Counted from the stretch's first letter, positions 4,454 through 53,421 are shown. The stretch: DNA of 64,000 nt from an uncultured Gammaproteobacteria bacterium (GCA_964452565.1 CAYVLY010000001.1:515053-579052); one strand, 5' to 3'. The notes: generated by a model from the letters alone, not told the origin. Numbers and translations: made by a program.

Positions 4454-4660
4454 CCTGGAACCCACACTCTACTCGCCCCAACTGGGGCACATCCAGTGCA
4501 CATGATTCAATCATGTTCAATGGATATCAAAACAACCCCAATCTCTCAGGGGGTTGTTTTGTTTTACAGCCGGCCGATAATTACATTATACCGGCTGGGA
4601 TCCCTCGGCATCCGCCTCGGGATGGACATGAGGGAGTAGGTTGTTTTGTTTTAAACTCTT

Positions 4661-9619: not shown

Positions 9620-9694
9620 GGCCCCATCGTCTAGTGGTTAGGACATCAGGTTTTCATCCTGGAAACGGGGGTTCGATTCCCCCTGGGGTCACCA
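9620..9694 (+). tRNA. tRNA-Glu (anticodon TTC)
   Basis: Cloverleaf: acceptor GGCCCCA/TGGGGTC, anticodon loop TTTTCAT, T-loop TTCGATT, encoded CCA. The 3' end forms attL of the integrated element. Confidence 0.85.
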
Positions 9695-11201
9695 AAGAGG
9701 ACTCATCCATGTGATGTGTCTTTTTTGTTTGTAAGATTGGCGACAAAGCAGGTGTTTCAAATCCTGAATAGGTGTACACGGGTTTTTCTGGGAAAATCAA
9801 ACTCTGCAACTGCTGTTTTTGCGTGAAGTCGGCGTCAACCCATGTCTTTGGGAGTGTTCCAACGAATCCAAAAACGTAATCAACCGCCTCGTCGATATTG
9901 AATGTTTCCAGCCGCACTTTTGCGAGCTTGGTGTGCTGGTCTGCAATGCGATCTTTTACCTCGGCAAACTCCTCCTTGAAATCATCATCCTCGATCAGTT
10001 CTTTTTTCTTCATTCCAATGAGTGCTTTCTTTTCTTCCTCTATACGATCGAGCTCAACGGTCAGACGTTTACGTTCCTGATTGATTGTTTCGTACTGGTC
10101 GTCCCATACGTCCAAAATAACAGCCTTGAACGCCTTGAGAAACTTTTGTTTGGGAGTGATTTGTTCAAGGTAGTTGAAAAACTCTTGCTCGAGAGTATCT
10201 TTTGGAATTGATTTTACTTTTGTTGGGCACTCTTTGAAGTAACAGCGGTAGTACGGATACTTGTCGCCAGACTTGTTCGTTGAGAACGAAGCGGTCATTG
10301 GACGACCACAAAATCCACAAATCACTTGATGGCGCAGCGGAAACGCATCGTTGCCACGCTTTTTGGCGATCGCATCCTCCTTGCTTGAACCTCTGAGAAG
10401 CGTTTGACACATATTGAATGTTTCCATGCTGACAAGCGGTTCATGCAGTCCTTTGTACTCTTTCCCCTTTGAAACCATGCGCCCTGTGTAAAATACGTTT
10501 CTAACGATCTTTGAAATAAGTTGCGGGGAAATCTTGTTTCCTTGCTCAGTACGCAATCCACGATCATTGACGGCAACTCGCACCTCCTCCAGCGTGTAGA
10601 TGCCTTTTGCAAACTCACCAAAGATCCAGCCCATATGCTCGGCTTTTTCACTGTCAGCTGTGACGATCTTTTCTCCTGCCTTGGTTTTGATGTTTCTGTA
10701 ACCGATGGGAGCTTTCCATTGCCAATATCCTTTTTCGAGTTTAGTCAGCATGCAATCACGGGTGCGCTCTCCACGAATCTGGTTATCAAATTGAGCATTG
10801 GCCGCCATTACGTTACCGATGAACTGACCCGCTGGCGTTTCATCAATGGCTTCTGTTACCGATATGAGCCTGATATTGAGTTTGCTCAGGAGTACCAAGA
10901 TCGTACTATAATCGTTCACGTTTCGTGTCAGACGGTCGACTTTGTAGACAATAATGAAGTCGATGGTTTTGTAGTTCTTCTTGCAGTATTCAAGCATAGC
11001 TTGAAGTCCATCTCGATTTGCCGTCTTAGCCGATACGCCATCATCATGAAACACCTTATCGACGTTACCTTGGATTTCTTTCGCCTTCCTGTGGCACGCA
11101 TTATCCTGCTGCTCCAAGCTGATACCCAAAGCAGCCTGTTCCTCTGTCGAAACACGGTAATAGATGAGGCCATTGAGTTGTAGATCTTGAGTTTCGTTCA
11201 T
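9654..11201 (-). CDS. Large serine recombinase (copy 1; C-terminus altered by integration)
   Basis: 515 aa. It has an N-terminal resolvase-type catalytic domain (YYRVSTEEQ), a recombinase domain and a Cys zinc ribbon (CGFCGRPM...YYRCYFKECP). Its 3' end crosses the att core (LVT) and terminates inside the tRNA sequence. Confidence 0.8.
   Translation of the reverse strand: MNETQDLQLNGLIYYRVSTEEQAALGISLEQQDNACHRKAKEIQGNVDKVFHDDGVSAKTANRDGLQAMLEYCKKNYKTIDFIIVYKVDRLTRNVNDYSTILVLLSKLNIRLISVTEAIDETPAGQFIGNVMAANAQFDNQIRGERTRDCMLTKLEKGYWQWKAPIGYRNIKTKAGEKIVTADSEKAEHMGWIFGEFAKGIYTLEEVRVAVNDRGLRTEQGNKISPQLISKIVRNVFYTGRMVSKGKEYKGLHEPLVSMETFNMCQTLLRGSSKEDAIAKKRGNDAFPLRHQVICGFCGRPMTASFSTNKSGDKYPYYRCYFKECPTKVKSIPKDTLEQEFFNYLEQITPKQKFLKAFKAVILDVWDDQYETINQERKRLTVELDRIEEEKKALIGMKKKELIEDDDFKEEFAEVKDRIADQHTKLAKVRLETFNIDEAVDYVFGFVGTLPKTWVDADFTQKQQLQSLIFPEKPVYTYSGFETPALSPILQTKKTHHMDESSLVTPGGIEPPFPG
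9687..9696 (+). other. att core copy 1 (attL: tRNA-Glu 3' end / element left end)
   Basis: GGTCACCAAA. The left flank is tRNA and the right flank is the element. Confidence 0.7.
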
Positions 11202-11515
11202 ATACCAAAAGGAGTGACTCTCCGTTTGAGCTCAACCACCAAACGATGGAAGAAACGGCAGTCACCCCTTTTCATATCACAACGATTGCATTGTGTTGTG
11301 TACGCTTGGAACGTTGAGCTCATACGCATTATGTCATGTTTACAGTTGATTTTCAACGGGTGTTTTTACTCCCATTCGTTCTTTTTTCCATTTCTCAAAG
11401 GCGAGGTTTGCAAATTGATATTGAGCATCTCGAAGCTGACGAATCTCATCATCGCTCATACCTTTTGCGTCTTCGCCAAGCAAACGCTTGTACTTCGAGA
11501 GCGCAATCATAAATC

Positions 11516-12682
11516 TTACGCATCATTTCCTGATGCGACCTTACGTAGCATTGCTTGTAGCTCATCCTCGCTGATGTTGTATCGCACCTCCCCAGACCCC
11601 CTCTGTACAGCCTCAATCTCACGCATCAACTCGATCTGTCGACTTTCGTCGATATGCCCGTAGCCGTAGGAGCCGAATGTAGTTGCTACATTTTCGTGAC
11701 CAAGGTTCTGGCTTATGGCTTTTTTCTGCTCCTCGGTCAGCGGCTTTTTCATGAACTCCTTGACCAAAAGATGACGCAAGGAGTGAGGATGGTAGTACGG
11801 CTCACCTGCTGCCTTGAAGCGTTTTTCAAAAATCTTTCGAGCAGGGCTTGCGCTCGACCAGTAGACAGGCTCAACTTCCCCCGTGCTGTAATAACTGATG
11901 TTTTCTTTTCCGTTTTCCACCTTGGTGGCAGGAAACAATGGGTCATTCTCCTTGAATCCACGTTCATCTTTGAGATATTCAAACCATGACAAGAAGTATG
12001 TTTGTGCTTCTTTGTATTCAAGTGGGAATAAAGCCGTTGCAATCCGCTTTGAGAACTTGGTTTTGACACCAAGGTTTGGGTCTTGGTCAACCACCATGTC
12101 AACGGGGTCAAACGAGCCCAGAGGCAAGCTCACGATTGCTGAAATGCGTGCCCCTGTCAGCAGGGTAAAGCTCAAGAGAGCCTTGTCACGCATGTCGATT
12201 TCGTTTTTTGGTTCAATCGCTTCAATGACCTTTTTTACCTGTTCCATTGTGGGAATCTTGCGTCGTTTGCTTTGAAGCGCTTGACGAGACTCCTTTTTGC
12301 CAAGTGATAAGTACCCAATATCTGTTTCTTGGATGGCCTGCCGATACCCCTCCTGCCTTGAGAGCCAGTCGAAGAAACCACGTAACTTGCGTAGAGTGTG
12401 GTACTGGTAGCTGATACTTACATTTCCACCTCGCTTGCTTTGGCGAGTGGCGAGCCACGTCTTGAACTCAACAGCACGTTTCTTGTTGAACAGATGAAAA
12501 TCCGCTTCATCCGTAAAGTCCTGCCATTGTAGAATGGCTCCTTCATACGTCGTGATGGAGCTCTGCGAAAAGCCCTTGGACTGCTTGAGGTAGTCGAAAT
12601 ACTTTCGCTTCATCAGCTCGTTTTCATAACGCACTTCTTCCTTCGTTTTTGTGGGTTTTGTGTTGTTTGTAGATTGGGACAT
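11516..12682 (-). CDS. Tyrosine recombinase/integrase family protein (copy 1)
   Basis: 388 aa with phage-integrase-like motifs (TGARISA, HPHSLRHLL, LGHENVATTFGSYGY). Confidence 0.7.
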   Translation of the reverse strand: MSQSTNNTKPTKTKEEVRYENELMKRKYFDYLKQSKGFSQSSITTYEGAILQWQDFTDEADFHLFNKKRAVEFKTWLATRQSKRGGNVSISYQYHTLRKLRGFFDWLSRQEGYRQAIQETDIGYLSLGKKESRQALQSKRRKIPTMEQVKKVIEAIEPKNEIDMRDKALLSFTLLTGARISAIVSLPLGSFDPVDMVVDQDPNLGVKTKFSKRIATALFPLEYKEAQTYFLSWFEYLKDERGFKENDPLFPATKVENGKENISYYSTGEVEPVYWSSASPARKIFEKRFKAAGEPYYHPHSLRHLLVKEFMKKPLTEEQKKAISQNLGHENVATTFGSYGYGHIDESRQIELMREIEAVQRGSGEVRYNISEDELQAMLRKVASGNDA

Positions 12683-12687
12683 ATAGC

Positions 12688-13164
12688 TTATGTGTGAGAG
12701 AATCCGTTAGTCCTTTCGGGAGAGGTTTTGAGTAGGCGAGATATTTTGCTGCCGCACGCCTCACACAGACCCGTTCTGCGATACTGTTCGAGGTTGTTTT
12801 TCCCTATCCGCTTGCCCGTTTTTTCTATTCGTTCGGTACCTTCTTTTGGCCTGACACCTTGGCCGCAGGAAAAGCAGAGGAGTTCATCTGGCTTGAGCTT
12901 CTGCTTCCTGTCGTTTCGTCGAGCTTTGAGAAAGTCGTAAAGCACCTGTCCATCAAAGAGCAGAGGCTTCTTGTTGGACATCATGGGTGCAAGCCCTTGC
13001 TTCATCCATCGCTGTACAGTTTTTCGACCAATACCCAACTCGGCGACAATCTCATTGATGTCGTAGCTATGGCGTTTTTTGATCTTGTTGAGCTGGTACC
13101 GCTTCATGACTTTGAAAGTTCTGGAGAGGCTTTCCCATCTCCGTACCTTTATGCAGCCGTTCAA
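12688..13164 (-). CDS. HTH plus zinc-ribbon DNA-binding protein (copy 1)
   Basis: 158 aa with an HTH (INEIVAELGIGRKTVQRWMKQGL) and a CxxC...CxxC motif (CFSCGQG...CEACGSK). Confidence 0.5.
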   Translation of the reverse strand: MNGCIKVRRWESLSRTFKVMKRYQLNKIKKRHSYDINEIVAELGIGRKTVQRWMKQGLAPMMSNKKPLLFDGQVLYDFLKARRNDRKQKLKPDELLCFSCGQGVRPKEGTERIEKTGKRIGKNNLEQYRRTGLCEACGSKISRLLKTSPERTNGFSHT

Positions 13165-13264
13165 GTGGAGTCGCTGTCAAATCTTTGGGGGTGTGAACAA
13201 AACAAACAAAAAATCCCCATGTTTTACGGGGTTTTTGTGTTTGGGTTATCGACGCTTTACCTTT

Positions 13265-13296
13265 GTTCAAGTATCGACTTGAACGACCACTTGAAC
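13265..13296. promoter_or_regulatory. Operator-like palindrome GTTCAAGT-n4-ACTTGAAC plus a third half-site (copy 1)
   Basis: Perfect 8-bp inverted repeat with an additional ACTTGAAC 4 bp downstream. It lies in the 140-bp gap upstream of the HTH/integrase operon. Confidence 0.4.
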
Positions 13297-13303
13297 GAGT
13301 GTT

Positions 13304-14278
13304 CTATGTACAGCAATCGAGACGGGGGTTGAGTCGATAGCGACTACGACCCTTCTTATCAAAAACCGTCTTTGTGCCGTACTCCAATGCTACGTCGTTT
13401 ATCTGTTTTTTGTATGTTGAAATCGTGCGCTTGTTACCGCTTGCAAACTTATCTGCCAAAACACTCAACTCGACCGATGGGTCATCCTTGGTTCGTGCGT
13501 TGAAAAGATACTCAATCATGTAAACGGTCGGCTGATACAGCGATAGTCTCCCTGCAAAGCGTCCTCGCCCAACCTGCTTGAATAGCAGTTCTTTGTCCTT
13601 TCTCGCCAGAACGATGTCTTTGTCCAGCACAATGGAATCTTCGCCATCAATGGCGTAATCCTGCTGGAAATATGTTGCCTCTGCGACAGCATCAATCTCT
13701 ATACCATTTTCATCAATGTCTGCGATAAGTTCCAGTACGGGAACGGCATGGATATGAAGCGAAGCTGCCTTGTTGTTTGGATCGGCAAGAAATAGCAGGG
13801 TTGGACTACTGCGTGCGATGATGCTTGCCAGATATTCTTCACGCAAGTCATTGAGGTTGGCCACAAAAAAGATGGCTCGTGCGGCACCTGTTATTTCCAT
13901 GGCACCCACATTCCAAAACAAACCACTTTGCTTGAGGTGCGCCTCGGTGAGCTCAACGCCCTCTGCGTCAAGAAACAAGGCAAGAAACCGCCGAACATTC
14001 AAACTGTATGCGTGGCGATCTTCTGGCTTGAGGTACTGTCGATCCGTATCTTTCGAGCAGGCTACAAACAGGCGTTCCTCATCTTGTTGTACTGGAAGCA
14101 GGTGCCCGTCATAGCACGACGTGCATAAAGCCTCACTCCTTCGTGCGGTAGTTTGAATCAAGCCGAGTTTGGTCAAAAACTCCGTCACCTCATTTCCAAC
14201 AAGCTCAACCAATACAGAGCGATCCACTTGTGTGCTGGCACCGAAAAGCTGTAGCCCCTGTCGTAGATCGTTTCTCAT
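13304..14278 (-). CDS. Hypothetical protein, element cargo (324 aa, copy 1)
   Basis: Its start overlaps the stop of the upstream 389-aa gene by 4 bp (ATGA). No recognisable motif. Confidence 0.55.
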   Translation of the reverse strand: MRNDLRQGLQLFGASTQVDRSVLVELVGNEVTEFLTKLGLIQTTARRSEALCTSCYDGHLLPVQQDEERLFVACSKDTDRQYLKPEDRHAYSLNVRRFLALFLDAEGVELTEAHLKQSGLFWNVGAMEITGAARAIFFVANLNDLREEYLASIIARSSPTLLFLADPNNKAASLHIHAVPVLELIADIDENGIEIDAVAEATYFQQDYAIDGEDSIVLDKDIVLARKDKELLFKQVGRGRFAGRLSLYQPTVYMIEYLFNARTKDDPSVELSVLADKFASGNKRTISTYKKQINDVALEYGTKTVFDKKGRSRYRLNPRLDCCT

Positions 14279-15444
14279 ACCTCATTCACGGTATCAATAC
14301 CCCACTTGATGAGGAGCTTCCGCACCAACATGTCTTGCTCTCGGCTTTTGAGATTATGCCCTTTGCCATGCGTTACATCGAAGGTCACAGGGCGCCTTTT
14401 TCCGTTGATTTTGAAAACGACTTTGATTTTGGCTTGAAGAATATCAAAGAAATCAAAGTTGATATTGCGATACTGGAGCATTTCTTTCATGCTTTCAACG
14501 CCACCTTTTGCATCTGATCCAATGGTCAAGTACACCTTGCTCCCATTCGGACGAAATCGCAGGCTCATTGCCTTGAGTTGAACTGATTCGACGTTTTCTT
14601 CCTCCGCTATGGTCAGCGGATCAGGGTCGAGTGATTTGAGTACGTCGAGCCTATATGAGCTTGTTTTACAGTCTTCATAACGCAGACTCCACACATCTTC
14701 AATAACGGCACGTTGCAACCCCTCAACCTTTGTTTGTCCGCCCTTGACTTTCACTTCGAGTTTATTTCCGTTCAGCCAGTATTGAATATACGCTCGTAGA
14801 ATAGGACGTCTTGGCGTATCAGGTTTGAGCTTATCATCTGTCTCAAACTTCAAGTCGTTTACAAAGCGGTCTTCTACATAGGCGACCATGCACAAGCGGT
14901 CAGGTTTTTCGATGAGCTTGATTTTGCACCGTGTCTTTCGTCGACCAAATGTGAACATGTTCTGAATAGACTGTTCAAGTGTCGTGACGCCGTTGGTCAA
15001 AGTCGCCACTTCAACATCTGGGATGACAACACTTTTCCAGCTGCAAATGTTATCGAGCGCATGTTCGTCAACCGAAGTATGGAAAATGTCCTCGTGATTG
15101 ATAAAGAACCACAAGGCTCGGGAGTGATGATTGGGGAGTTCGTCGTACACCTTCCAGTCCACGGACTTTTGCAAGCGTTCTGCGGTTTTTTGTAGATACG
15201 CTACGGAAGCCCAGCCAGACATGTCGCTGATGTCATTGAGTGCCGTGAGAACCTCACCATGCTTTTGCTCATCCTGCGTATCGACTACCACCAAAAATCG
15301 GTCAGCACGAGCTTCATCTTCTTCATCGTCGTGTATAATAAAATCCAACTCCAACTTTTTGGCGAACTCACCAAGGAGTGCGGGGTCAAACTTCATCAAT
15401 AACGATGATGGATCAAAACTTCCTGTACCAGCCATATGTTGCAA
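14275..15444 (-). CDS. Hypothetical protein, element cargo (389 aa, copy 1)
   Basis: First gene of the minus-strand cargo operon. No recognisable motif. Confidence 0.55.
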   Translation of the reverse strand: MQHMAGTGSFDPSSLLMKFDPALLGEFAKKLELDFIIHDDEEDEARADRFLVVVDTQDEQKHGEVLTALNDISDMSGWASVAYLQKTAERLQKSVDWKVYDELPNHHSRALWFFINHEDIFHTSVDEHALDNICSWKSVVIPDVEVATLTNGVTTLEQSIQNMFTFGRRKTRCKIKLIEKPDRLCMVAYVEDRFVNDLKFETDDKLKPDTPRRPILRAYIQYWLNGNKLEVKVKGGQTKVEGLQRAVIEDVWSLRYEDCKTSSYRLDVLKSLDPDPLTIAEEENVESVQLKAMSLRFRPNGSKVYLTIGSDAKGGVESMKEMLQYRNINFDFFDILQAKIKVVFKINGKRRPVTFDVTHGKGHNLKSREQDMLVRKLLIKWGIDTVNEV

Positions 15445-15475
15445 AGATTTGTCAACTTATGGTAACTTACCAAAT

Positions 15476-15676
15476 ATGCAAGATCGGTCAACTCCACGAG
15501 AGACAAAAAAGCTCCCAGAGTTGTTGACTCTCAAAGAGGCGGCTGATTTGTTGCATTGTCACCCGAATACGTTGCGTAACTGGGACAACAAGGGCATCCT
15601 TGTTGCCGTGCGTCTGGGGTCACTGGGTGATCGCAGGTACAAAAAGCAAGACATATTGAAACTGATGGAGAAATAA
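15476..15676 (+). CDS. Xis/AlpA-like HTH DNA-binding protein (putative excisionase/regulator, copy 1)
   Basis: 66 aa (MQDRSTPRETKKLPELLTLKEAADLLHCHPNTLRNWDNKGIL...) with a MerR/excisionase-type HTH. Only the C-terminal part of track ORF 15131-15676 is counted, because the rest overlaps the 389-aa gene on the opposite strand. Confidence 0.6.
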   Translation: MQDRSTPRETKKLPELLTLKEAADLLHCHPNTLRNWDNKGILVAVRLGSLGDRRYKKQDILKLMEK

Positions 15677-15686
15677 AAGATGAGGT

Positions 15687-16460
15687 ATGCAGGTCGAACA
15701 AAGTAAGAATCTTGATCAGCAATTTTGTGAACATGGAAACTTCCTATTTTCATGTCCAGAATGTAAAGAAAGAGGTAGGGATATAATTTTGAGAATAGCT
15801 GACAGGAGATCGGTGCCTGATACTGAACAGGTTGAAAAAGTCAGGAATCACATTGAGAAGGTGGTACTGGGCGCTCTTTCAATGTTTGTTTCAAGGTTCG
15901 AGACTTATTGCAGAAAAGGAAACGAACTCGAGATTGTCATAGTTGATGCGACCGATCAAGATTTTGGTTCTGGAGAAGTGAAAGGTACTACTATTGACAT
16001 CCCGTTGTTAGAAGAGGAAAGGATGAGCTTCATTTTGCAAAGAATGGTTGAGAAATCTGATGACATTACGAAAAAACAACTCGAAAACATTGGTATTGCT
16101 ATCACTTGTTCGACGATATTACACGAAGCAATACATAGTTTTTTGGAGTCAAAGCCACACTCGAGTCTTCATGAAAAGATAGAAGCAATGAGTAGTATTC
16201 CTGATCCAGAAGGGATATTTTCCACACTATGCGATGAAGCCATTGCATATTCCATGCAATCCATTTTTTCAGAAACTATAGAGCCCTTTGGAAATACTGC
16301 TCCAAGAGTTGACCAAGATAAGGAAGCTAGTCTGGTCGCTGTAAGAAAAAAACTAGGTATGGCCATCGAAAAAGATATGCGAAAGGTGTTATATGGAAGG
16401 CTGGACACAGAATCATTCTTTGATATTCTTATACAAAAAGCAAAAACACTAACTCAATAA
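15687..16460 (+). CDS. HExxH-motif protein (putative metallopeptidase, ImmA/IrrE-like?) (copy 1)
   Basis: 257 aa with an N-terminal CxxC...CPEC and an internal ILHEAIH (HExxH). Family assignment is uncertain. Confidence 0.4.
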   Translation: MQVEQSKNLDQQFCEHGNFLFSCPECKERGRDIILRIADRRSVPDTEQVEKVRNHIEKVVLGALSMFVSRFETYCRKGNELEIVIVDATDQDFGSGEVKGTTIDIPLLEEERMSFILQRMVEKSDDITKKQLENIGIAITCSTILHEAIHSFLESKPHSSLHEKIEAMSSIPDPEGIFSTLCDEAIAYSMQSIFSETIEPFGNTAPRVDQDKEASLVAVRKKLGMAIEKDMRKVLYGRLDTESFFDILIQKAKTLTQ

Positions 16461-16471
16461 CAACAATATCT

Positions 16472-16960
16472 ATGTCAGAGACACGACGTGGACAAGAGCA
16501 TTCCCCCGATTCAGCAAACGAAATAGTCGAATTGCAACGAGAACAGATGAAACAAAACTTTGATGAAATTGCAGTAAAAGCCTTGTTCCAGTTGAGGAGA
16601 AGTTTGTTAGGGAAAGATTATCGAAACTTGCCCAATTTGAGAGCGCTTCCTGAACCGTTTGAACCAAACGCAGATATATCACATGATACACTCATGAAAA
16701 TATCATCTGATTTTATTACAGAAATGAGGTTGCAAATATCAGCTATCATTGCGGAGGCAACGAGAAGATTATCTTTGTATGATCAAAAGAAACAAGAGTA
16801 TCCAATTGATGCAAACATGGCACTTGAGGAGGTCTTGATTGAAAAAGCTTTTGATTTCTTGCGAGACCAAAAAAGAATAATCAGCAACAACCGCGGTACA
16901 CTTGGTGGATGGATGAAGACAATAGTAGAAAGAGAGAAAAATATAGTTGAGCATGACTAG
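16472..16960 (+). CDS. Hypothetical protein (162 aa, copy 1)
   Basis: ORF at the right end of the element. No motifs. Confidence 0.45.
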   Translation: MSETRRGQEHSPDSANEIVELQREQMKQNFDEIAVKALFQLRRSLLGKDYRNLPNLRALPEPFEPNADISHDTLMKISSDFITEMRLQISAIIAEATRRLSLYDQKKQEYPIDANMALEEVLIEKAFDFLRDQKRIISNNRGTLGGWMKTIVEREKNIVEHD

Positions 16961-18579
16961 TCGAGAGAAAAGGGTTGCATTTTTTGAGATCCAAAAATAT
17001 GCGGCAATGTCTCCGACCATTGCTTGATTTGCTGGATCAGGGTGTTCCAATGCTCAATACAGTAGGTCACCAAAGAGGACTCATCCATGTGATGTGTCTT
17101 TTTTGTTTGTAAGATTGGCGACAAAGCAGGTGTTTCAAATCCTGAATAGGTGTACACGGGTTTTTCTGGGAAAATCAAACTCTGCAACTGCTGTTTTTGC
17201 GTGAAGTCGGCGTCAACCCATGTCTTTGGGAGTGTTCCAACGAATCCAAAAACGTAATCAACCGCCTCGTCGATATTGAATGTTTCCAGCCGCACTTTTG
17301 CGAGCTTGGTGTGCTGGTCTGCAATGCGATCTTTTACCTCGGCAAACTCCTCCTTGAAATCATCATCCTCGATCAGTTCTTTTTTCTTCATTCCAATGAG
17401 TGCTTTCTTTTCTTCCTCTATACGATCGAGCTCAACGGTCAGACGTTTACGTTCCTGATTGATTGTTTCGTACTGGTCGTCCCATACGTCCAAAATAACA
17501 GCCTTGAACGCCTTGAGAAACTTTTGTTTGGGAGTGATTTGTTCAAGGTAGTTGAAAAACTCTTGCTCGAGAGTATCTTTTGGAATTGATTTTACTTTTG
17601 TTGGGCACTCTTTGAAGTAACAGCGGTAGTACGGATACTTGTCGCCAGACTTGTTCGTTGAGAACGAAGCGGTCATTGGACGACCACAAAATCCACAAAT
17701 CACTTGATGGCGCAGCGGAAACGCATCGTTGCCACGCTTTTTGGCGATCGCATCCTCCTTGCTTGAACCTCTGAGAAGCGTTTGACACATATTGAATGTT
17801 TCCATGCTGACAAGCGGTTCATGCAGTCCTTTGTACTCTTTCCCCTTTGAAACCATGCGCCCTGTGTAAAATACGTTTCTAACGATCTTTGAAATAAGTT
17901 GCGGGGAAATCTTGTTTCCTTGCTCAGTACGCAATCCACGATCATTGACGGCAACTCGCACCTCCTCCAGCGTGTAGATGCCTTTTGCAAACTCACCAAA
18001 GATCCAGCCCATATGCTCGGCTTTTTCACTGTCAGCTGTGACGATCTTTTCTCCTGCCTTGGTTTTGATGTTTCTGTAACCGATGGGAGCTTTCCATTGC
18101 CAATATCCTTTTTCGAGTTTAGTCAGCATGCAATCACGGGTGCGCTCTCCACGAATCTGGTTATCAAATTGAGCATTGGCCGCCATTACGTTACCGATGA
18201 ACTGACCCGCTGGCGTTTCATCAATGGCTTCTGTTACCGATATGAGCCTGATATTGAGTTTGCTCAGGAGTACCAAGATCGTACTATAATCGTTCACGTT
18301 TCGTGTCAGACGGTCGACTTTGTAGACAATAATGAAGTCGATGGTTTTGTAGTTCTTCTTGCAGTATTCAAGCATAGCTTGAAGTCCATCTCGATTTGCC
18401 GTCTTAGCCGATACGCCATCATCATGAAACACCTTATCGACGTTACCTTGGATTTCTTTCGCCTTCCTGTGGCACGCATTATCCTGCTGCTCCAAGCTGA
18501 TACCCAAAGCAGCCTGTTCCTCTGTCGAAACACGGTAATAGATGAGGCCATTGAGTTGTAGATCTTGAGTTTCGTTCAT
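16957..18579 (-). CDS. Large serine recombinase (copy 2; full-length attP-type form, 540 aa)
   Basis: Identical to copy 1 down to the att core. It then continues 37 codons into the right end of the preceding element copy (…LVTYCIEHWNTLIQQIKQWSETLPHIFGSQKMQPFSLD). Confidence 0.8.
   Translation of the reverse strand: MNETQDLQLNGLIYYRVSTEEQAALGISLEQQDNACHRKAKEIQGNVDKVFHDDGVSAKTANRDGLQAMLEYCKKNYKTIDFIIVYKVDRLTRNVNDYSTILVLLSKLNIRLISVTEAIDETPAGQFIGNVMAANAQFDNQIRGERTRDCMLTKLEKGYWQWKAPIGYRNIKTKAGEKIVTADSEKAEHMGWIFGEFAKGIYTLEEVRVAVNDRGLRTEQGNKISPQLISKIVRNVFYTGRMVSKGKEYKGLHEPLVSMETFNMCQTLLRGSSKEDAIAKKRGNDAFPLRHQVICGFCGRPMTASFSTNKSGDKYPYYRCYFKECPTKVKSIPKDTLEQEFFNYLEQITPKQKFLKAFKAVILDVWDDQYETINQERKRLTVELDRIEEEKKALIGMKKKELIEDDDFKEEFAEVKDRIADQHTKLAKVRLETFNIDEAVDYVFGFVGTLPKTWVDADFTQKQQLQSLIFPEKPVYTYSGFETPALSPILQTKKTHHMDESSLVTYCIEHWNTLIQQIKQWSETLPHIFGSQKMQPFSLD
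17065..17074 (+). other. att core copy 2 (element-element junction, attP-like)
   Basis: GGTCACCAAA flanked by the element right end (CAATACAGTAGG) and the element left end (GAGGACTCATCC). Confidence 0.7.
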
Positions 18580-18893
18580 ATACCAAAAGGAGTGACTCTC
18601 CGTTTGAGCTCAACCACCAAACGATGGAAGAAACGGCAGTCACCCCTTTTCATATCACAACGATTGCATTGTGTTGTGTACGCTTGGAACGTTGAGCTCA
18701 TACGCATTATGTCATGTTTACAGTTGATTTTCAACGGGTGTTTTTACTCCCATTCGTTCTTTTTTCCATTTCTCAAAGGCGAGGTTTGCAAATTGATATT
18801 GAGCATCTCGAAGCTGACGAATCTCATCATCGCTCATACCTTTTGCGTCTTCGCCAAGCAAACGCTTGTACTTCGAGAGCGCAATCATAAATC

Positions 18894-20060
18894 TTACGCA
18901 TCATTTCCTGATGCGACCTTACGTAGCATTGCTTGTAGCTCATCCTCGCTGATGTTGTATCGCACCTCCCCAGACCCCCTCTGTACAGCCTCAATCTCAC
19001 GCATCAACTCGATCTGTCGACTTTCGTCGATATGCCCGTAGCCGTAGGAGCCGAATGTAGTTGCTACATTTTCGTGACCAAGGTTCTGGCTTATGGCTTT
19101 TTTCTGCTCCTCGGTCAGCGGCTTTTTCATGAACTCCTTGACCAAAAGATGACGCAAGGAGTGAGGATGGTAGTACGGCTCACCTGCTGCCTTGAAGCGT
19201 TTTTCAAAAATCTTTCGAGCAGGGCTTGCGCTCGACCAGTAGACAGGCTCAACTTCCCCCGTGCTGTAATAACTGATGTTTTCTTTTCCGTTTTCCACCT
19301 TGGTGGCAGGAAACAATGGGTCATTCTCCTTGAATCCACGTTCATCTTTGAGATATTCAAACCATGACAAGAAGTATGTTTGTGCTTCTTTGTATTCAAG
19401 TGGGAATAAAGCCGTTGCAATCCGCTTTGAGAACTTGGTTTTGACACCAAGGTTTGGGTCTTGGTCAACCACCATGTCAACGGGGTCAAACGAGCCCAGA
19501 GGCAAGCTCACGATTGCTGAAATGCGTGCCCCTGTCAGCAGGGTAAAGCTCAAGAGAGCCTTGTCACGCATGTCGATTTCGTTTTTTGGTTCAATCGCTT
19601 CAATGACCTTTTTTACCTGTTCCATTGTGGGAATCTTGCGTCGTTTGCTTTGAAGCGCTTGACGAGACTCCTTTTTGCCAAGTGATAAGTACCCAATATC
19701 TGTTTCTTGGATGGCCTGCCGATACCCCTCCTGCCTTGAGAGCCAGTCGAAGAAACCACGTAACTTGCGTAGAGTGTGGTACTGGTAGCTGATACTTACA
19801 TTTCCACCTCGCTTGCTTTGGCGAGTGGCGAGCCACGTCTTGAACTCAACAGCACGTTTCTTGTTGAACAGATGAAAATCCGCTTCATCCGTAAAGTCCT
19901 GCCATTGTAGAATGGCTCCTTCATACGTCGTGATGGAGCTCTGCGAAAAGCCCTTGGACTGCTTGAGGTAGTCGAAATACTTTCGCTTCATCAGCTCGTT
20001 TTCATAACGCACTTCTTCCTTCGTTTTTGTGGGTTTTGTGTTGTTTGTAGATTGGGACAT
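18894..20060 (-). CDS. Tyrosine recombinase/integrase family protein (copy 2)
   Basis: Identical duplicate of 11516-12682. Confidence 0.7.
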   Translation of the reverse strand: MSQSTNNTKPTKTKEEVRYENELMKRKYFDYLKQSKGFSQSSITTYEGAILQWQDFTDEADFHLFNKKRAVEFKTWLATRQSKRGGNVSISYQYHTLRKLRGFFDWLSRQEGYRQAIQETDIGYLSLGKKESRQALQSKRRKIPTMEQVKKVIEAIEPKNEIDMRDKALLSFTLLTGARISAIVSLPLGSFDPVDMVVDQDPNLGVKTKFSKRIATALFPLEYKEAQTYFLSWFEYLKDERGFKENDPLFPATKVENGKENISYYSTGEVEPVYWSSASPARKIFEKRFKAAGEPYYHPHSLRHLLVKEFMKKPLTEEQKKAISQNLGHENVATTFGSYGYGHIDESRQIELMREIEAVQRGSGEVRYNISEDELQAMLRKVASGNDA

Positions 20061-20065
20061 ATAGC

Positions 20066-20542
20066 TTATGTGTGAGAGAATCCGTTAGTCCTTTCGGGAG
20101 AGGTTTTGAGTAGGCGAGATATTTTGCTGCCGCACGCCTCACACAGACCCGTTCTGCGATACTGTTCGAGGTTGTTTTTCCCTATCCGCTTGCCCGTTTT
20201 TTCTATTCGTTCGGTACCTTCTTTTGGCCTGACACCTTGGCCGCAGGAAAAGCAGAGGAGTTCATCTGGCTTGAGCTTCTGCTTCCTGTCGTTTCGTCGA
20301 GCTTTGAGAAAGTCGTAAAGCACCTGTCCATCAAAGAGCAGAGGCTTCTTGTTGGACATCATGGGTGCAAGCCCTTGCTTCATCCATCGCTGTACAGTTT
20401 TTCGACCAATACCCAACTCGGCGACAATCTCATTGATGTCGTAGCTATGGCGTTTTTTGATCTTGTTGAGCTGGTACCGCTTCATGACTTTGAAAGTTCT
20501 GGAGAGGCTTTCCCATCTCCGTACCTTTATGCAGCCGTTCAA
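20066..20542 (-). CDS. HTH plus zinc-ribbon DNA-binding protein (copy 2)
   Basis: Identical duplicate of 12688-13164. Confidence 0.5.
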   Translation of the reverse strand: MNGCIKVRRWESLSRTFKVMKRYQLNKIKKRHSYDINEIVAELGIGRKTVQRWMKQGLAPMMSNKKPLLFDGQVLYDFLKARRNDRKQKLKPDELLCFSCGQGVRPKEGTERIEKTGKRIGKNNLEQYRRTGLCEACGSKISRLLKTSPERTNGFSHT

Positions 20543-20681
20543 GTGGAGTCGCTGTCAAATCTTTGGGGGTGTGAACAAAACAAACAAAAAATCCCCATGT
20601 TTTACGGGGTTTTTGTGTTTGGGTTATCGACGCTTTACCTTTGTTCAAGTATCGACTTGAACGACCACTTGAACGAGTGTT

Positions 20682-21656
20682 CTATGTACAGCAATCGAGA
20701 CGGGGGTTGAGTCGATAGCGACTACGACCCTTCTTATCAAAAACCGTCTTTGTGCCGTACTCCAATGCTACGTCGTTTATCTGTTTTTTGTATGTTGAAA
20801 TCGTGCGCTTGTTACCGCTTGCAAACTTATCTGCCAAAACACTCAACTCGACCGATGGGTCATCCTTGGTTCGTGCGTTGAAAAGATACTCAATCATGTA
20901 AACGGTCGGCTGATACAGCGATAGTCTCCCTGCAAAGCGTCCTCGCCCAACCTGCTTGAATAGCAGTTCTTTGTCCTTTCTCGCCAGAACGATGTCTTTG
21001 TCCAGCACAATGGAATCTTCGCCATCAATGGCGTAATCCTGCTGGAAATATGTTGCCTCTGCGACAGCATCAATCTCTATACCATTTTCATCAATGTCTG
21101 CGATAAGTTCCAGTACGGGAACGGCATGGATATGAAGCGAAGCTGCCTTGTTGTTTGGATCGGCAAGAAATAGCAGGGTTGGACTACTGCGTGCGATGAT
21201 GCTTGCCAGATATTCTTCACGCAAGTCATTGAGGTTGGCCACAAAAAAGATGGCTCGTGCGGCACCTGTTATTTCCATGGCACCCACATTCCAAAACAAA
21301 CCACTTTGCTTGAGGTGCGCCTCGGTGAGCTCAACGCCCTCTGCGTCAAGAAACAAGGCAAGAAACCGCCGAACATTCAAACTGTATGCGTGGCGATCTT
21401 CTGGCTTGAGGTACTGTCGATCCGTATCTTTCGAGCAGGCTACAAACAGGCGTTCCTCATCTTGTTGTACTGGAAGCAGGTGCCCGTCATAGCACGACGT
21501 GCATAAAGCCTCACTCCTTCGTGCGGTAGTTTGAATCAAGCCGAGTTTGGTCAAAAACTCCGTCACCTCATTTCCAACAAGCTCAACCAATACAGAGCGA
21601 TCCACTTGTGTGCTGGCACCGAAAAGCTGTAGCCCCTGTCGTAGATCGTTTCTCAT
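20682..21656 (-). CDS. Hypothetical cargo protein (324 aa, copy 2)
   Basis: Identical duplicate of 13304-14278. Confidence 0.55.
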   Translation of the reverse strand: MRNDLRQGLQLFGASTQVDRSVLVELVGNEVTEFLTKLGLIQTTARRSEALCTSCYDGHLLPVQQDEERLFVACSKDTDRQYLKPEDRHAYSLNVRRFLALFLDAEGVELTEAHLKQSGLFWNVGAMEITGAARAIFFVANLNDLREEYLASIIARSSPTLLFLADPNNKAASLHIHAVPVLELIADIDENGIEIDAVAEATYFQQDYAIDGEDSIVLDKDIVLARKDKELLFKQVGRGRFAGRLSLYQPTVYMIEYLFNARTKDDPSVELSVLADKFASGNKRTISTYKKQINDVALEYGTKTVFDKKGRSRYRLNPRLDCCT

Positions 21657-22822
21657 ACCTCATTCACGGTATCAATACCCCACTTGATGAGGAGCTTCCG
21701 CACCAACATGTCTTGCTCTCGGCTTTTGAGATTATGCCCTTTGCCATGCGTTACATCGAAGGTCACAGGGCGCCTTTTTCCGTTGATTTTGAAAACGACT
21801 TTGATTTTGGCTTGAAGAATATCAAAGAAATCAAAGTTGATATTGCGATACTGGAGCATTTCTTTCATGCTTTCAACGCCACCTTTTGCATCTGATCCAA
21901 TGGTCAAGTACACCTTGCTCCCATTCGGACGAAATCGCAGGCTCATTGCCTTGAGTTGAACTGATTCGACGTTTTCTTCCTCCGCTATGGTCAGCGGATC
22001 AGGGTCGAGTGATTTGAGTACGTCGAGCCTATATGAGCTTGTTTTACAGTCTTCATAACGCAGACTCCACACATCTTCAATAACGGCACGTTGCAACCCC
22101 TCAACCTTTGTTTGTCCGCCCTTGACTTTCACTTCGAGTTTATTTCCGTTCAGCCAGTATTGAATATACGCTCGTAGAATAGGACGTCTTGGCGTATCAG
22201 GTTTGAGCTTATCATCTGTCTCAAACTTCAAGTCGTTTACAAAGCGGTCTTCTACATAGGCGACCATGCACAAGCGGTCAGGTTTTTCGATGAGCTTGAT
22301 TTTGCACCGTGTCTTTCGTCGACCAAATGTGAACATGTTCTGAATAGACTGTTCAAGTGTCGTGACGCCGTTGGTCAAAGTCGCCACTTCAACATCTGGG
22401 ATGACAACACTTTTCCAGCTGCAAATGTTATCGAGCGCATGTTCGTCAACCGAAGTATGGAAAATGTCCTCGTGATTGATAAAGAACCACAAGGCTCGGG
22501 AGTGATGATTGGGGAGTTCGTCGTACACCTTCCAGTCCACGGACTTTTGCAAGCGTTCTGCGGTTTTTTGTAGATACGCTACGGAAGCCCAGCCAGACAT
22601 GTCGCTGATGTCATTGAGTGCCGTGAGAACCTCACCATGCTTTTGCTCATCCTGCGTATCGACTACCACCAAAAATCGGTCAGCACGAGCTTCATCTTCT
22701 TCATCGTCGTGTATAATAAAATCCAACTCCAACTTTTTGGCGAACTCACCAAGGAGTGCGGGGTCAAACTTCATCAATAACGATGATGGATCAAAACTTC
22801 CTGTACCAGCCATATGTTGCAA
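21653..22822 (-). CDS. Hypothetical cargo protein (389 aa, copy 2)
   Basis: Identical duplicate of 14275-15444. Confidence 0.55.
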   Translation of the reverse strand: MQHMAGTGSFDPSSLLMKFDPALLGEFAKKLELDFIIHDDEEDEARADRFLVVVDTQDEQKHGEVLTALNDISDMSGWASVAYLQKTAERLQKSVDWKVYDELPNHHSRALWFFINHEDIFHTSVDEHALDNICSWKSVVIPDVEVATLTNGVTTLEQSIQNMFTFGRRKTRCKIKLIEKPDRLCMVAYVEDRFVNDLKFETDDKLKPDTPRRPILRAYIQYWLNGNKLEVKVKGGQTKVEGLQRAVIEDVWSLRYEDCKTSSYRLDVLKSLDPDPLTIAEEENVESVQLKAMSLRFRPNGSKVYLTIGSDAKGGVESMKEMLQYRNINFDFFDILQAKIKVVFKINGKRRPVTFDVTHGKGHNLKSREQDMLVRKLLIKWGIDTVNEV

Positions 22823-22853
22823 AGATTTGTCAACTTATGGTAACTTACCAAAT

Positions 22854-23054
22854 ATGCAAGATCGGTCAACTCCACGAGAGACAAAAAAGCTCCCAGAGTT
22901 GTTGACTCTCAAAGAGGCGGCTGATTTGTTGCATTGTCACCCGAATACGTTGCGTAACTGGGACAACAAGGGCATCCTTGTTGCCGTGCGTCTGGGGTCA
23001 CTGGGTGATCGCAGGTACAAAAAGCAAGACATATTGAAACTGATGGAGAAATAA
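22854..23054 (+). CDS. Xis/AlpA-like HTH protein (copy 2)
   Basis: Identical duplicate of 15476-15676. Confidence 0.6.
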   Translation: MQDRSTPRETKKLPELLTLKEAADLLHCHPNTLRNWDNKGILVAVRLGSLGDRRYKKQDILKLMEK

Positions 23055-23064
23055 AAGATGAGGT

Positions 23065-23838
23065 ATGCAGGTCGAACAAAGTAAGAATCTTGATCAGCAA
23101 TTTTGTGAACATGGAAACTTCCTATTTTCATGTCCAGAATGTAAAGAAAGAGGTAGGGATATAATTTTGAGAATAGCTGACAGGAGATCGGTGCCTGATA
23201 CTGAACAGGTTGAAAAAGTCAGGAATCACATTGAGAAGGTGGTACTGGGCGCTCTTTCAATGTTTGTTTCAAGGTTCGAGACTTATTGCAGAAAAGGAAA
23301 CGAACTCGAGATTGTCATAGTTGATGCGACCGATCAAGATTTTGGTTCTGGAGAAGTGAAAGGTACTACTATTGACATCCCGTTGTTAGAAGAGGAAAGG
23401 ATGAGCTTCATTTTGCAAAGAATGGTTGAGAAATCTGATGACATTACGAAAAAACAACTCGAAAACATTGGTATTGCTATCACTTGTTCGACGATATTAC
23501 ACGAAGCAATACATAGTTTTTTGGAGTCAAAGCCACACTCGAGTCTTCATGAAAAGATAGAAGCAATGAGTAGTATTCCTGATCCAGAAGGGATATTTTC
23601 CACACTATGCGATGAAGCCATTGCATATTCCATGCAATCCATTTTTTCAGAAACTATAGAGCCCTTTGGAAATACTGCTCCAAGAGTTGACCAAGATAAG
23701 GAAGCTAGTCTGGTCGCTGTAAGAAAAAAACTAGGTATGGCCATCGAAAAAGATATGCGAAAGGTGTTATATGGAAGGCTGGACACAGAATCATTCTTTG
23801 ATATTCTTATACAAAAAGCAAAAACACTAACTCAATAA
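23065..23838 (+). CDS. HExxH-motif protein (copy 2)
   Basis: Identical duplicate of 15687-16460. Confidence 0.4.
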   Translation: MQVEQSKNLDQQFCEHGNFLFSCPECKERGRDIILRIADRRSVPDTEQVEKVRNHIEKVVLGALSMFVSRFETYCRKGNELEIVIVDATDQDFGSGEVKGTTIDIPLLEEERMSFILQRMVEKSDDITKKQLENIGIAITCSTILHEAIHSFLESKPHSSLHEKIEAMSSIPDPEGIFSTLCDEAIAYSMQSIFSETIEPFGNTAPRVDQDKEASLVAVRKKLGMAIEKDMRKVLYGRLDTESFFDILIQKAKTLTQ

Positions 23839-23849
23839 CAACAATATCT

Positions 23850-24338
23850 ATGTCAGAGACACGACGTGGACAAGAGCATTCCCCCGATTCAGCAAACGAA
23901 ATAGTCGAATTGCAACGAGAACAGATGAAACAAAACTTTGATGAAATTGCAGTAAAAGCCTTGTTCCAGTTGAGGAGAAGTTTGTTAGGGAAAGATTATC
24001 GAAACTTGCCCAATTTGAGAGCGCTTCCTGAACCGTTTGAACCAAACGCAGATATATCACATGATACACTCATGAAAATATCATCTGATTTTATTACAGA
24101 AATGAGGTTGCAAATATCAGCTATCATTGCGGAGGCAACGAGAAGATTATCTTTGTATGATCAAAAGAAACAAGAGTATCCAATTGATGCAAACATGGCA
24201 CTTGAGGAGGTCTTGATTGAAAAAGCTTTTGATTTCTTGCGAGACCAAAAAAGAATAATCAGCAACAACCGCGGTACACTTGGTGGATGGATGAAGACAA
24301 TAGTAGAAAGAGAGAAAAATATAGTTGAGCATGACTAG
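23850..24338 (+). CDS. Hypothetical protein (162 aa, copy 2)
   Basis: Identical duplicate of 16472-16960. Confidence 0.45.
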   Translation: MSETRRGQEHSPDSANEIVELQREQMKQNFDEIAVKALFQLRRSLLGKDYRNLPNLRALPEPFEPNADISHDTLMKISSDFITEMRLQISAIIAEATRRLSLYDQKKQEYPIDANMALEEVLIEKAFDFLRDQKRIISNNRGTLGGWMKTIVEREKNIVEHD

Positions 24339-24443
24339 TCGAGAGAAAAGGGTTGCATTTTTTGAGATCCAAAAATATGCGGCAATGTCTCCGACCATTG
24401 CTTGATTTGCTGGATCAGGGTGTTCCAATGCTCAATACAGTAG

Positions 24444-24453
24444 GTCACCAAAA
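24444..24453 (+). other. att core copy 3 (attR: element right end / chromosome)
   Basis: GGTCACCAAA followed by the chromosomal hairpin AGAACACGC-tccc-GCGTGTTCTTTT. Confidence 0.7.
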
Positions 24454-24482
24454 GAACACGCTCCCGCGTGTTCTTTTGATTT
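24454..24482 (+). terminator. Displaced tRNA-Glu terminator hairpin
   Basis: AGAACACGC-tccc-GCGTGTTCT followed by TTTTGATTTTG, immediately after the attR core. Confidence 0.5.
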
Positions 24483-24496
24483 TGCTCTTCATTAAA

Positions 24497-25126
24497 CTAC
24501 TTCTCCTGATTCTGCAACCACTTCACACCAAGATACACAAACGGCGTATCGATCGCGGCAAACGCAATCTTGAAAAGATAATATGGAACAGCAAGTGTAA
24601 TAATAAATCCAAACGTGAACTTATCTGATATCCCGTAGAATGCTATTGTCATAAATAAAAGCGTATCGATCGCTTGCGAAACAAAAGTTGAAAGATTGTT
24701 TCTAAGCCAGAGCATCTTGCCTTTTGTCTTCTTTTTCCAAAACTCAAACGCCCACACATCATGCAACTGTGCCACGGCAAAAGCGATAATGCTGGCAATA
24801 ATCATTCGCAGTGAAGTCCCAAAAATCGTGACATAAGCATCATTAAACTCATAGCGCTCATGCGGGCCAAGAACTACAAATAATGCGGTATAGGCAAAAG
24901 TGATGATTAGTGCGACAAGTCCAATGATTACAAATTGCCGTGCGACTTTTTTTCCAAATACATCTGCAACAATATCTGTGATCAAAAATGTGAGCGGAAC
25001 CATGAATATCCCTACAGATACCGAAACACCAAGTAGAGTTGTGATTTTCCCTCCTAAAAGATTCATGCCGATCAATAATCCAATAAATACCCCTAATAAT
25101 AACTTTAACTTAAAATCTTGTTTCAT
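24497..25126 (-). CDS. YhhQ/DUF165-like membrane protein (putative queuosine-precursor transporter)
   Basis: 209-aa multi-TM protein. The resemblance to the YhhQ family is from memory, not from a search. Confidence 0.5.
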   Translation of the reverse strand: MKQDFKLKLLLGVFIGLLIGMNLLGGKITTLLGVSVSVGIFMVPLTFLITDIVADVFGKKVARQFVIIGLVALIITFAYTALFVVLGPHERYEFNDAYVTIFGTSLRMIIASIIAFAVAQLHDVWAFEFWKKKTKGKMLWLRNNLSTFVSQAIDTLLFMTIAFYGISDKFTFGFIITLAVPYYLFKIAFAAIDTPFVYLGVKWLQNQEK

Positions 25127-25285
25127 ATGTTTTGATTACTTATTAGAGCAACCTATAAAGGTTAGCAGAAAAACGATTTCTAGCATAACACCCGTTAAAA
25201 TCCACTATGTTATAATTAATCCAGAAGAAAGAGCGGAGGGTTCTTTCACCAACAATCAACCATCACCTACGTCTGGAGGTTTGAT

Positions 25286-25802: not shown

Positions 25803-25818
25803 CTGACCACCCACTCTC

Positions 25819-25858
25819 CGCGCCCGCGGCCTCTCCAGGCTCGCGGGCATCGTGTTTT
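25819..25858 (+). terminator. GC hairpin terminator (GCCCGCGG...CGCGGGC plus T-run), copy 1 of 2
   Basis: The same roughly 30-nt sequence recurs at 26489-26530. Confidence 0.5.
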
Positions 25859-48363: not shown

Positions 48364-49856
<1,493 letters not shown>

Positions 49857-53394: not shown

Positions 53395-53421
53395 GCAAAA
53401 AATAATATAGAATAAAGATGA

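Follow-up and report, generated by a model that had tools for sequence, protein, structure and literature searches.

The window analysed here is a stretch of 64,000 nt (GCA_964452565.1 CAYVLY010000001.1:515053-579052) that is recorded as DNA of an uncultured Gammaproteobacteria bacterium. It contains a tRNA-Glu gene followed by two head-to-tail copies of an integrative element, which codes for a large serine recombinase (LSR). The open reading frame (ORF) of the LSR crosses the site of insertion, and as a consequence the C-terminal tail of the enzyme differs between the free and the inserted form of the element. The features on which the analysis is based are listed here by their position in the window, with protein lengths in amino acids (aa) and hairpins described by folding free energy (dG) and z-score (z).

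9620-9694, plus strand: tRNA-Glu(UUC), intact and with encoded CCA, the integration target (ARAGORN; Rfam RF00005, 65.2 bits)
9654-11201, minus strand: LSR, integrated (attL) form, 515 aa (PF00239 4e-32, PF07508 2e-11, PF13408 1e-8)
9687-9696, plus strand: core copy 1 (match to GGTCACCAAA), attL, the tRNA/element junction
9693-9727 (second copy 17071-17105), plus strand: terminator-like hairpin and U-run from the element, directly after the tRNA CCA (dG -14.9 kcal/mol, z -3.2)
9697-17074, no strand: element copy 1, 7,378 bp, with core copy 2 taken as its end; identical to 17075-24452
11516-12682 (copy 2 18894-20060), minus strand: Xer-like tyrosine recombinase, 388 aa (PF00589, PF02899)
16957-17064, minus strand: tail-coding segment at the far element end, encoding YCIEHWNTLIQQIKQWSETLPHIFGSQKMQPFSLD, in frame with the LSR only across the attP junction
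16957-18579, minus strand: LSR, junction (attP-type) form, 540 aa, with a frame that runs from copy 2 through core 2 and into the last part of copy 1
17065-17074, plus strand: core copy 2 (match to GGTCACCAAA), the element/element junction, attP sequence
17075-24452, no strand: element copy 2, exactly identical to copy 1
24335-24442: unlinked attR copy of the tail-coding segment
24443-24452, plus strand: core copy 3 (match to GGTCACCAAA), attR, the element/chromosome junction
24449-24478, plus strand: displaced native tRNA-Glu terminator hairpin, the B' arm of attB (dG -19.8 kcal/mol, z -7.6)
24497-25126, minus strand: chromosomal flank, queuosine-precursor transporter (Vut_1; TIGR00697, 1.9e-50)

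When the window was compared with itself, 9697-17074 and 17075-24452 were found to agree over 7,378 bp with 0 mismatches. The longest exact repeat (9687-17074 / 17065-24452) has 7,388 bp and represents the element plus one core. An exact repeat of 7.4 kb cannot have arisen by chance. On the two strands of the 64 kb there are exactly three occurrences of the core GGTCACCAAA, which consists of the last four acceptor-stem bases, the discriminator base, the CCA and the subsequent AA of tRNA-Glu. The tRNA gene's 3′ end is the B arm of attB and attL. The element-element junction, which is the attP sequence, reads CAATACAGTAGGTCACCAAAGAGGACTCATCC, and the empty attB contains CTGGGGTCACCAAAAGAACACGC.

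An earlier note on this DNA had described an exact tandem of a 7,378-bp unit, integrated site-specifically at the 3′ end of tRNA-Glu and written in the order attL-element-attP-element-attR, and this description agrees with our results. The three core copies were also seen correctly, with the third one placed off by one (24444-24453 instead of 24443-24452). The native terminator is displaced as proposed, its hairpin being found directly after the third core, and the element does carry two recombinases from different families, the LSR (PF00239) and the Xer-like tyrosine recombinase (PF00589). The assumption of a reduced-genome host is borne out by TsaD, which is 82-91% identical to proteins from Patescibacteria / Ca. 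Uhrbacteria.

Additional copies of the locus were sought by exact-protein look-ups. Besides the NCBI assembly, this genome was found in two public runs only, the sister runs SRR8146440 and SRR8146441, and for these we used the Logan contigs (a k=31 graph). A look for publications that name either run gave no result. Contig L001 from SRR8146440 (8,803 bp) corresponds to window positions 9665-25845 minus exactly one copy of the element, at 100% identity. A single-copy allele thus exists, and the element boundaries obtain independent support. A relative of 10,566 bp resides at the same tRNA-Glu between two copies of the identical 10-bp core on JGI (Joint Genome Institute) contig L146. The flank of this relative is that of the window, with the terminator, the Vut_1 transporter and an AI-2E transporter. 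We are fairly confident that we are dealing with an integrative element which its own LSR has inserted site-specifically at tRNA-Glu(UUC) of a Patescibacteria (Uhrbacteria-like) chromosome.

At the core, the LSR ORF runs out of the element into the tRNA gene, where it ends on the strand opposite the tRNA. Residues 1-505 (up to T505) are common to both LSR forms and are all encoded by the element. In the attL form they are followed by residues 506-515, PGGIEPPFPG, which are translated from the antisense of the T-arm and anticodon stem of tRNA-Glu. The TGA stop codon of this form is the antisense of anticodon nucleotides 35-36 and of nucleotide 37. In the 540-aa form the tail is YCIEHWNTLIQQIKQWSETLPHIFGSQKMQPFSLD, which is read across the junction from the far end of the adjacent copy. 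The attP site is located inside the 3′ end of the LSR gene, with the crossover within codons 502-505. A single insertion leads to a 515-aa enzyme, and a circle or an element-element junction leads to a 540-aa enzyme with a conserved C-terminal helix. This tail has the conserved motif WN..I..EIK.W, and residues 507-528 are predicted to form the helix, which follows a disordered linker (AlphaFold2, pLDDT 83.3).

A hidden Markov model (HMM) of the tail was built from ten junction tails and run against related loci. It detected about 35 segments at E < 1e-4, all of them on the LSR strand, and on the opposite strand there was none until E > 0.5. The flank terminator hairpin and the core immediately precede each of these segments, whose reading frame is the one that extends the LSR across the core. 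When the 3′ end of the LSR was joined to the far ends of relatives, the motif was rebuilt. The last 110 LSR residues were also searched against 1.84 billion representative sequences. Nearly half of the valid representative hits (36 of 79) have an alignment that extends beyond the crossover and contain WN-x-[ILV][ILV]-x-[ED][IL]-x-x-W, at identities as low as about 30%, and approximately 18 of the 79 end within one or two residues of the crossover. Two hits, P0272 and P0297, were discarded as low-complexity repeat proteins. In the YCIE subgroup, the tails vary as expected for coding sequence (variability at the three codon positions 0.285 / 0.153 / 0.347), and exchanges within L/I/V, D/E and K/R are found together with the use of different codons.

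It could be argued that an ORF which crosses the att site is a by-product of genome compaction and lacks regulatory meaning, the tail-coding segment being conserved as a DNA site (P arm, promoter or operator). Two observations fit this explanation. In the IIGEIEKW subgroup, the tail DNA is nearly invariant, third codon positions included (0.159 / 0.116 / 0.225), and the first five tail codons (TAC TGT ATT GAG AAT), which fall within a normal attP half-site, are conserved as DNA. Part of the tail conservation may thus represent a DNA site rather than a peptide. However, the motif is retained at about 30% protein identity with different codons, and the frame through the core is kept at >20 independent far ends. 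Furthermore, the conserved W...W block is 30-66 nt away from the core, which is beyond the typical 25-bp half-site, and the segment is predicted as a helix. We consider it rather unlikely that compaction and a conserved DNA site account for the arrangement.

Our own proposal, which is put forward only tentatively, is that there is a widespread clade of Patescibacteria serine integrases with attP inside their own gene, in which the topology of the DNA selects the isoform and the helix form is produced from circles and tandem junctions. From a single insertion, the form with ten antisense-tRNA residues in place of the helix would be produced. The tail swap may alter the activity or the directionality of the LSR. 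The full-length enzyme from the circle would perform the attP x attB integration, and the isoform from the integrated element, possibly together with a helix-turn-helix (HTH) protein, would have an altered activity. Should the helix govern synapsis or directionality, this would be a self-contained integration/excision switch for a serine integrase. If the proposal is true, the integration-type enzyme would be expressed from the chromosome only where the element is in tandem.

A distant LSR with 35% identity occurs in a genome that seemingly does not belong to the Patescibacteria (L150:10001-11587, ERZ25072999, a 1.36-Mb contig with a type I-E CRISPR-Cas system). This protein ends in a WN..LI.ELKEW helix, and there is no tRNA at the 3′ end of its gene. 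Here, the helix is either native or the contig represents an attP-type junction.

The last LSR codons encoded by the element have a second predicted function. The hairpin and U-run at 9693-9727 are antisense to LSR codons ~492-503, close to the end of the element-encoded part of the protein. At 52 unique related attL junctions, the T-run is always present (52/52) and z is below -2 in 49/52, with a median dG of -16.4 and a median z of -4.5. As hairpin and U-run are found at attL and are kept in relatives, the element is predicted to supply its own terminator for the tRNA, the native one having been displaced. This predicted replacement terminator is on the strand opposite the last LSR codons. 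A tRNA terminator overprinted on the last codons of an integrase would show plainly how a single piece of DNA can serve two functions.

The LSR has a complete set of domains, namely the resolvase catalytic domain, the recombinase domain and a zinc ribbon with an inserted coiled coil. Its nucleophile motif is YYRVSTEEQ, and S18 does not vary in either of two alignments, of 20 and of 46 homologues. The AlphaFold2 model (pLDDT 83.3) has long helices at 352-399 and 405-428, and in Foldseek it matches the full-length integrases of SPbeta, Bxb1 and phiC31 (9dxd, 9iu2, 9rah) with E-values from 1e-20 to 1e-15. About 690 homologues were found at E < 1e-20, which are from Patescibacteria where a name is given. 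The great majority of the best homologues (104 of 120) end in G[IFV]EP-type peptides, which is the antisense translation of a tRNA T-arm. Loci were scanned in the GTDB species-representative genomes, a set that does not include the genome of the window. In approximately 55 of 66 Patescibacteria loci, the LSR ORF runs into the antisense tRNA for 34-40 nt, or even further, before it stops. The targets at these loci are mostly tRNA-Glu (UUC or CUC), with tRNA-Ala being used by one subclade. The cores are short, 10 bp in the window and ~4-13 bp in relatives, and the position of the 2-bp crossover itself cannot be read from the sequence.

The tyrosine recombinase is XerA/C/D-like in NCBIfam, with scores below the cut-offs, and was found only in the subclade that comprises L007, L008, L146, L147 and L149. 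In the whole family it is the LSR gene that spans the att site, the tyrosine recombinase is confined to a small subclade, and the cores are short. This comparative evidence points to the LSR, and not the Xer-like protein, as the acting integrase. Nevertheless, the opposite assignment has to be weighed, with the tyrosine recombinase (11516-12682) as the tRNA integrase, as in classical tRNA islands, and the LSR serving another purpose. Tyrosine integrases are the usual catalysts at tRNA genes according to the part of the Islander paper that deals with them (PMC4383910), the gene is located near the tRNA-proximal end of the element, and HTH_17/excisionase-like genes are present. However, most family members that are inserted at this kind of site do not have the gene, and its product, which is Xer-like, has a SAM-like N-terminal domain and lacks an arm-binding domain. 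In addition, it is the LSR gene and not the tyrosine recombinase gene that abuts and crosses the att site in ~55 loci, and cores may be as short as 4-7 bp. On these comparative grounds (limited distribution, Xer-like character, LSR straddling the site) we rejected the tyrosine recombinase as integrase and consider such a role highly improbable. Judged by its distribution, it is a backbone protein of one subclade. A point that leaves the protein some part in the process is that it may, at a guess, have the accessory role of resolving circle multimers. For the directionality factor that would accompany the LSR, two small proteins of the HTH_17/MerR type are candidates.

The exact doubling alone is an ordinary arrangement of modest interest and may be an outcome of assembly. 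Both LSR forms, with 515 aa and 540 aa, are encoded on one NCBI contig of 709,517 bp. In SRR8146441, the element is represented by a 7,388-bp contig (L002) which starts and ends exactly with the core, and the attR contig (L005) overlaps it by 30 nt (k-1), counted back from the end of the core. With k=31, an overlap of k-1 means that the last k-mer of the element has two successors, the flank and another one. By symmetry, the first k-mer of the element has two predecessors, and the attP junction is the only solution that fits both. Since the graph branches at both cores, reads of the attP junction must exist in SRR8146441, and the junction is not an invention of the assembler. The junction is thus present in this run, but contigs cannot link the two copies, and the graph is explained equally well by a true tandem and by one integrated copy together with circles.

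The second of these explanations assumes cells with one integrated copy plus free, possibly replicating circles, the tandem having been written when an assembler or curator traversed the loop once. Several points weigh against a real tandem and for this alternative. The two copies are 100% identical, so that a real tandem cannot be told from a traversed loop by sequence alone. In SRR8146440, one copy only is assembled, with attL and attR passed without interruption and no junction branch, and the SRR8146441 graph (k=31), in which a 7,388-bp unitig has a core at either end, looks the same as it would for a tandem. The 540-aa LSR is on record in the NCBI assembly only. The search for the attP junction that the earlier note had suggested was run on JGI metagenomes and returned zero matches. 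Circles are not foreign to the family, as a circular relative (L008) exists, and many attP-form fragments occur in metagenomes. With free circles, a twofold element depth would lead a coverage-guided repeat resolver to write a tandem.

However, an empty-attB branch was not seen in the contigs of either run (L001 in SRR8146440, L005 in SRR8146441), while simple excision without replication would result in equal depth of attB and attP. A replication gene was not identified on the element. The diverged tandem arrays of relatives, which are described below, cannot be artefacts. The suggested search for the empty attB by its 21-mer did not help either, as the single match is in an unrelated coding region without tRNA-Glu and was rejected as a chance match. 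On balance, we see about even chances that a real tandem exists in at least part of the population, and consider the traversed loop somewhat less probable than that.

A real tandem could have arisen by three routes. A dimeric circle may have been integrated and left unresolved by the tyrosine recombinase, or an attL x attR exchange between sister chromosomes may have produced one tandem and one empty site. Alternatively, a second integration into attL or attR may have placed a copy next to the first one. As far as they are treated in the relevant part of PMC3783163, canonical serine integrases perform attP x attB only, or, together with a directionality factor, attL x attR. This would make a second integration into attL or attR non-canonical, which is a further point against the tandem.

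Tandems do occur in this element family. On L086-L089 (11 contigs from four assemblies), which are distant relatives, two diverged elements of ~5.2 kb and ~6.8 kb are arranged head to tail beside a tRNA and have 84-96% identity in the blocks that they share. In L087:4640-16760 (GCA_035402825.1 DAONDZ010000001.1; also in L086, L088, L089), this tRNA was typed as Arg(tct) by ARAGORN. Each of the two elements carries a rolling-circle Rep (PF23343) and an LSR, and the outer one has in addition a diversity-generating retroelement (DGR; RVT_1 and bAvd). A third LSR 3′-end remnant is located further out in L087, at ~4610-4650. Two or three successive far-end tail-coding segments, each preceded by a hairpin and a short core, are found upstream of the LSR in L033, L035, L051 and L063, which suggests element arrays or decayed remnants behind the same tRNA.

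The other genes of the element, given here for copy 1, are the following.

11340-11510, minus strand: 56-aa ORF between the tyrosine recombinase and the LSR, conserved in position (called in L001, L002, L146, L147)
12688-13107, minus strand: HTH_17 DNA-binding protein with a Cys-rich C-terminal segment, 139 aa from the ATG, ORF open to 13164 (PF12728)
13304-14278, minus strand: 324-aa backbone protein without family match (conserved in L007, L146, L149)
14275-15435, minus strand: 386-aa backbone protein (phrog_37634, function unknown)
15476-15676, plus strand: 66-aa MerR/excisionase-type HTH protein, candidate directionality factor or regulator (PF12728, PF13411; TIGR01764 'excise' below cut-off)
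15687-16460, plus strand: 257-aa cargo protein with a HEAIH (HExxH) motif, no family match, absent from relatives
16472-16960, plus strand: 162-aa cargo protein without family match, convergent with the 540-aa LSR frame and overlapping its end by 4 nt

The backbone common to L007, L146, L147 and L149 has the order 66-aa HTH protein, 386-aa protein, 324-aa protein, 139-aa HTH protein, tyrosine recombinase, 56-aa ORF and LSR. Homologues of the 139-aa HTH protein occur in L007 and L008, and it is called with the same length of 139 aa in L147 and L148. The 386-aa and 324-aa proteins have no Pfam, NCBIfam or PDB sequence match, and the model of the former has a weak fold resemblance to RdgC and CENP-N. 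The 257-aa cargo protein combines an N-terminal CxxC...CxxC pattern with its HEAIH motif. By analogy, this protein, which has no family match, may be a zinc metallopeptidase beside a small HTH gene, an arrangement that recalls ImmR/ImmA-type pairs.

Cargo at the far end varies and includes, in relatives, a DGR (reverse transcriptase and bAvd), a Dam methyltransferase and a PDDEXK protein. Searches of eight element proteins against Pfam, PHROGs, NCBIfam and PADLOC found no relaxase, type IV secretion system, Rep or capsid family. As genes for transfer, replication or virions were not found, the term "self-mobilisable", which the earlier note had used, is unsupported beyond integration and excision, and by its predicted gene content this is an integrative element rather than a self-mobilisable one. 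Cargo of the defence-island type was considered and dismissed, as PADLOC returned only HTH matches to mad1. A viral origin was rejected as well, because the family is almost absent from IMG/VR and the element has no capsid or morphogenesis genes. The IMG/VR scan with the LSR profile detected a single true relative (contig L090), and the scans with the tyrosine recombinase and the 386-aa protein detected none.

Relatives with the same backbone but swapped far-end cargo were found in L146:2016-12591, L147 and L149 (Ca. Uhrbacteria CG10, PCYM01000009.1). The cargo there includes a DGR, a methyltransferase of the Dam type and a PDDEXK_11 protein. L008:1-11164 (JBAZKU010000004.1), from the bin of a Paceibacterota metagenome-assembled genome (MAG), has a terminal direct repeat of 135 nt with 98% identity and is therefore probably a circular relative of ~11.0 kb. 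It codes for a helix-form LSR, a tyrosine recombinase and an HTH protein. For L007, the closest relative with full synteny, the far end was not found within 10 kb. Many third-party annotation (TPA) MAG records which are titled 'uncultured Gammaproteobacteria bacterium' (e.g. L007, L013, L021, L026) carry a Patescibacteria-type LSR at tRNA-Glu. These look like Patescibacteria contigs, and their titles are probably wrong.

Elsewhere in the window, a lone 16S rRNA gene is located at 48363-49854; there is no 23S or 5S rRNA gene nearby in the window, and the nearest tRNA genes are at 53132-54722. A 417-aa ORF without family match (6955-8208) has a very acidic, Pro/Glu-rich C-terminal tail and gives rise to a patch of 66% G+C (7001-8000) in a window of 46% G+C. 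The 778-aa protein at 40106-42442 matches the SMC family (TIGR02168, 9.5e-186) in two stretches, best in its N-terminal ~380 residues, and is much shorter than the usual SMC of ~1,180 aa.

The one-way control of serine integrases is an active structural question, and the enzymes are valued in genome engineering. If our proposal is true, integration that rewrites the C-terminus of the enzyme responsible for it would be a new and testable principle of control. The family would also offer a set of compact tRNA-targeting integrases. Patescibacteria have tiny genomes and few known mobile elements, and the cargo of this family includes DGRs, methyltransferases and rolling-circle replicons. It appears to be a main route by which genes spread at tRNA-Glu and tRNA-Ala in Patescibacteria. 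An incomplete literature search found no description of a serine integrase with an ORF spanning attP, of tRNA-Glu targeting by a serine integrase, or of this Patescibacteria family. What is new is the att-spanning serine integrase with a conserved, swappable tail and the overprinted terminator, and this is a variant of known arrangements.

With the phage LSRs (SPbeta, Bxb1, phiC31, A118/LI) the enzyme shares the order of domains and the short cores. The sequence identity is only 15-18%, and the phage enzymes target protein-coding genes or intergenic sites, in contrast to the tRNA 3′ end used here. To our knowledge, attP lies outside the integrase ORF in SPbeta, Bxb1, phiC31 and A118/LI.

As in a classical tRNA island, the element is inserted at the 3′ end of a tRNA gene and has a direct repeat at its far end. 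However, the repeat has only 10 bp, and the comparative evidence argues against a tyrosine integrase as the catalyst. Tandem arrays at tRNA genes (PMC7192596) likewise consist of head-to-tail elements with the crossover core at every junction, and are explained by a second integration into the regenerated core. They usually involve different elements and tyrosine integrases, whereas the window has identical units and a serine recombinase, an enzyme whose canonical reactions do not include attP x attL or attP x attR.

The closest architecture is that of the Dehalococcoides ssrA islands, as described in the available passages of PMC3146451. There, the gene for an LSR of ~540 aa (DsiB) is likewise on the reverse strand and adjoins attL, where a small-RNA gene has its 3′ end. 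The far boundary is recognised by a short direct repeat of the target's 3′ end, islands occur in tandem arrays downstream of the target, and conjugation genes are lacking. According to the same passages, the islands differ in targeting ssrA instead of tRNA-Glu, with a 20-bp repeat and a crossover in the T-loop. Their CcrB-like DsiB is accompanied by a small serine recombinase, DsiA, while the partner here is a tyrosine recombinase. No second, DsiA-like serine recombinase was found on our element, which thus does not carry the module of an ssrA genomic island. Duplicates of an island within one strain are not reported in that paper, and the passages do not describe an integrase ORF that crosses the att site.

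In its logic, the arrangement most closely resembles integration-dependent immunity and the Mx8 integrase. In the integration-dependent immunity of mycobacteriophages (PMC8092301), attP is also located within a gene, so that upon integration the encoded protein obtains a shorter or altered C-terminus, in some cases with a few extra residues contributed by the bacterial sequence at the 3′ end of a tRNA. That gene codes for a repressor, which loses a degradation tag, and integration is catalysed by a tyrosine recombinase. For myxophage Mx8, the section of PMC6070905 on this phage (citing Tojo 1996, Magrini 1999) places attP inside the integrase gene, so that the prophage form (IntX) obtains a C-terminus which differs from that of IntP and which changed the specificity of the integrase. 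According to that section the Mx8 integrase is a tyrosine recombinase, and the likeness to our LSR is one of logic only. In contrast to Mx8, the replacement tail described here is provided by the antisense strand of a tRNA gene and is common to a clade of hundreds of proteins.

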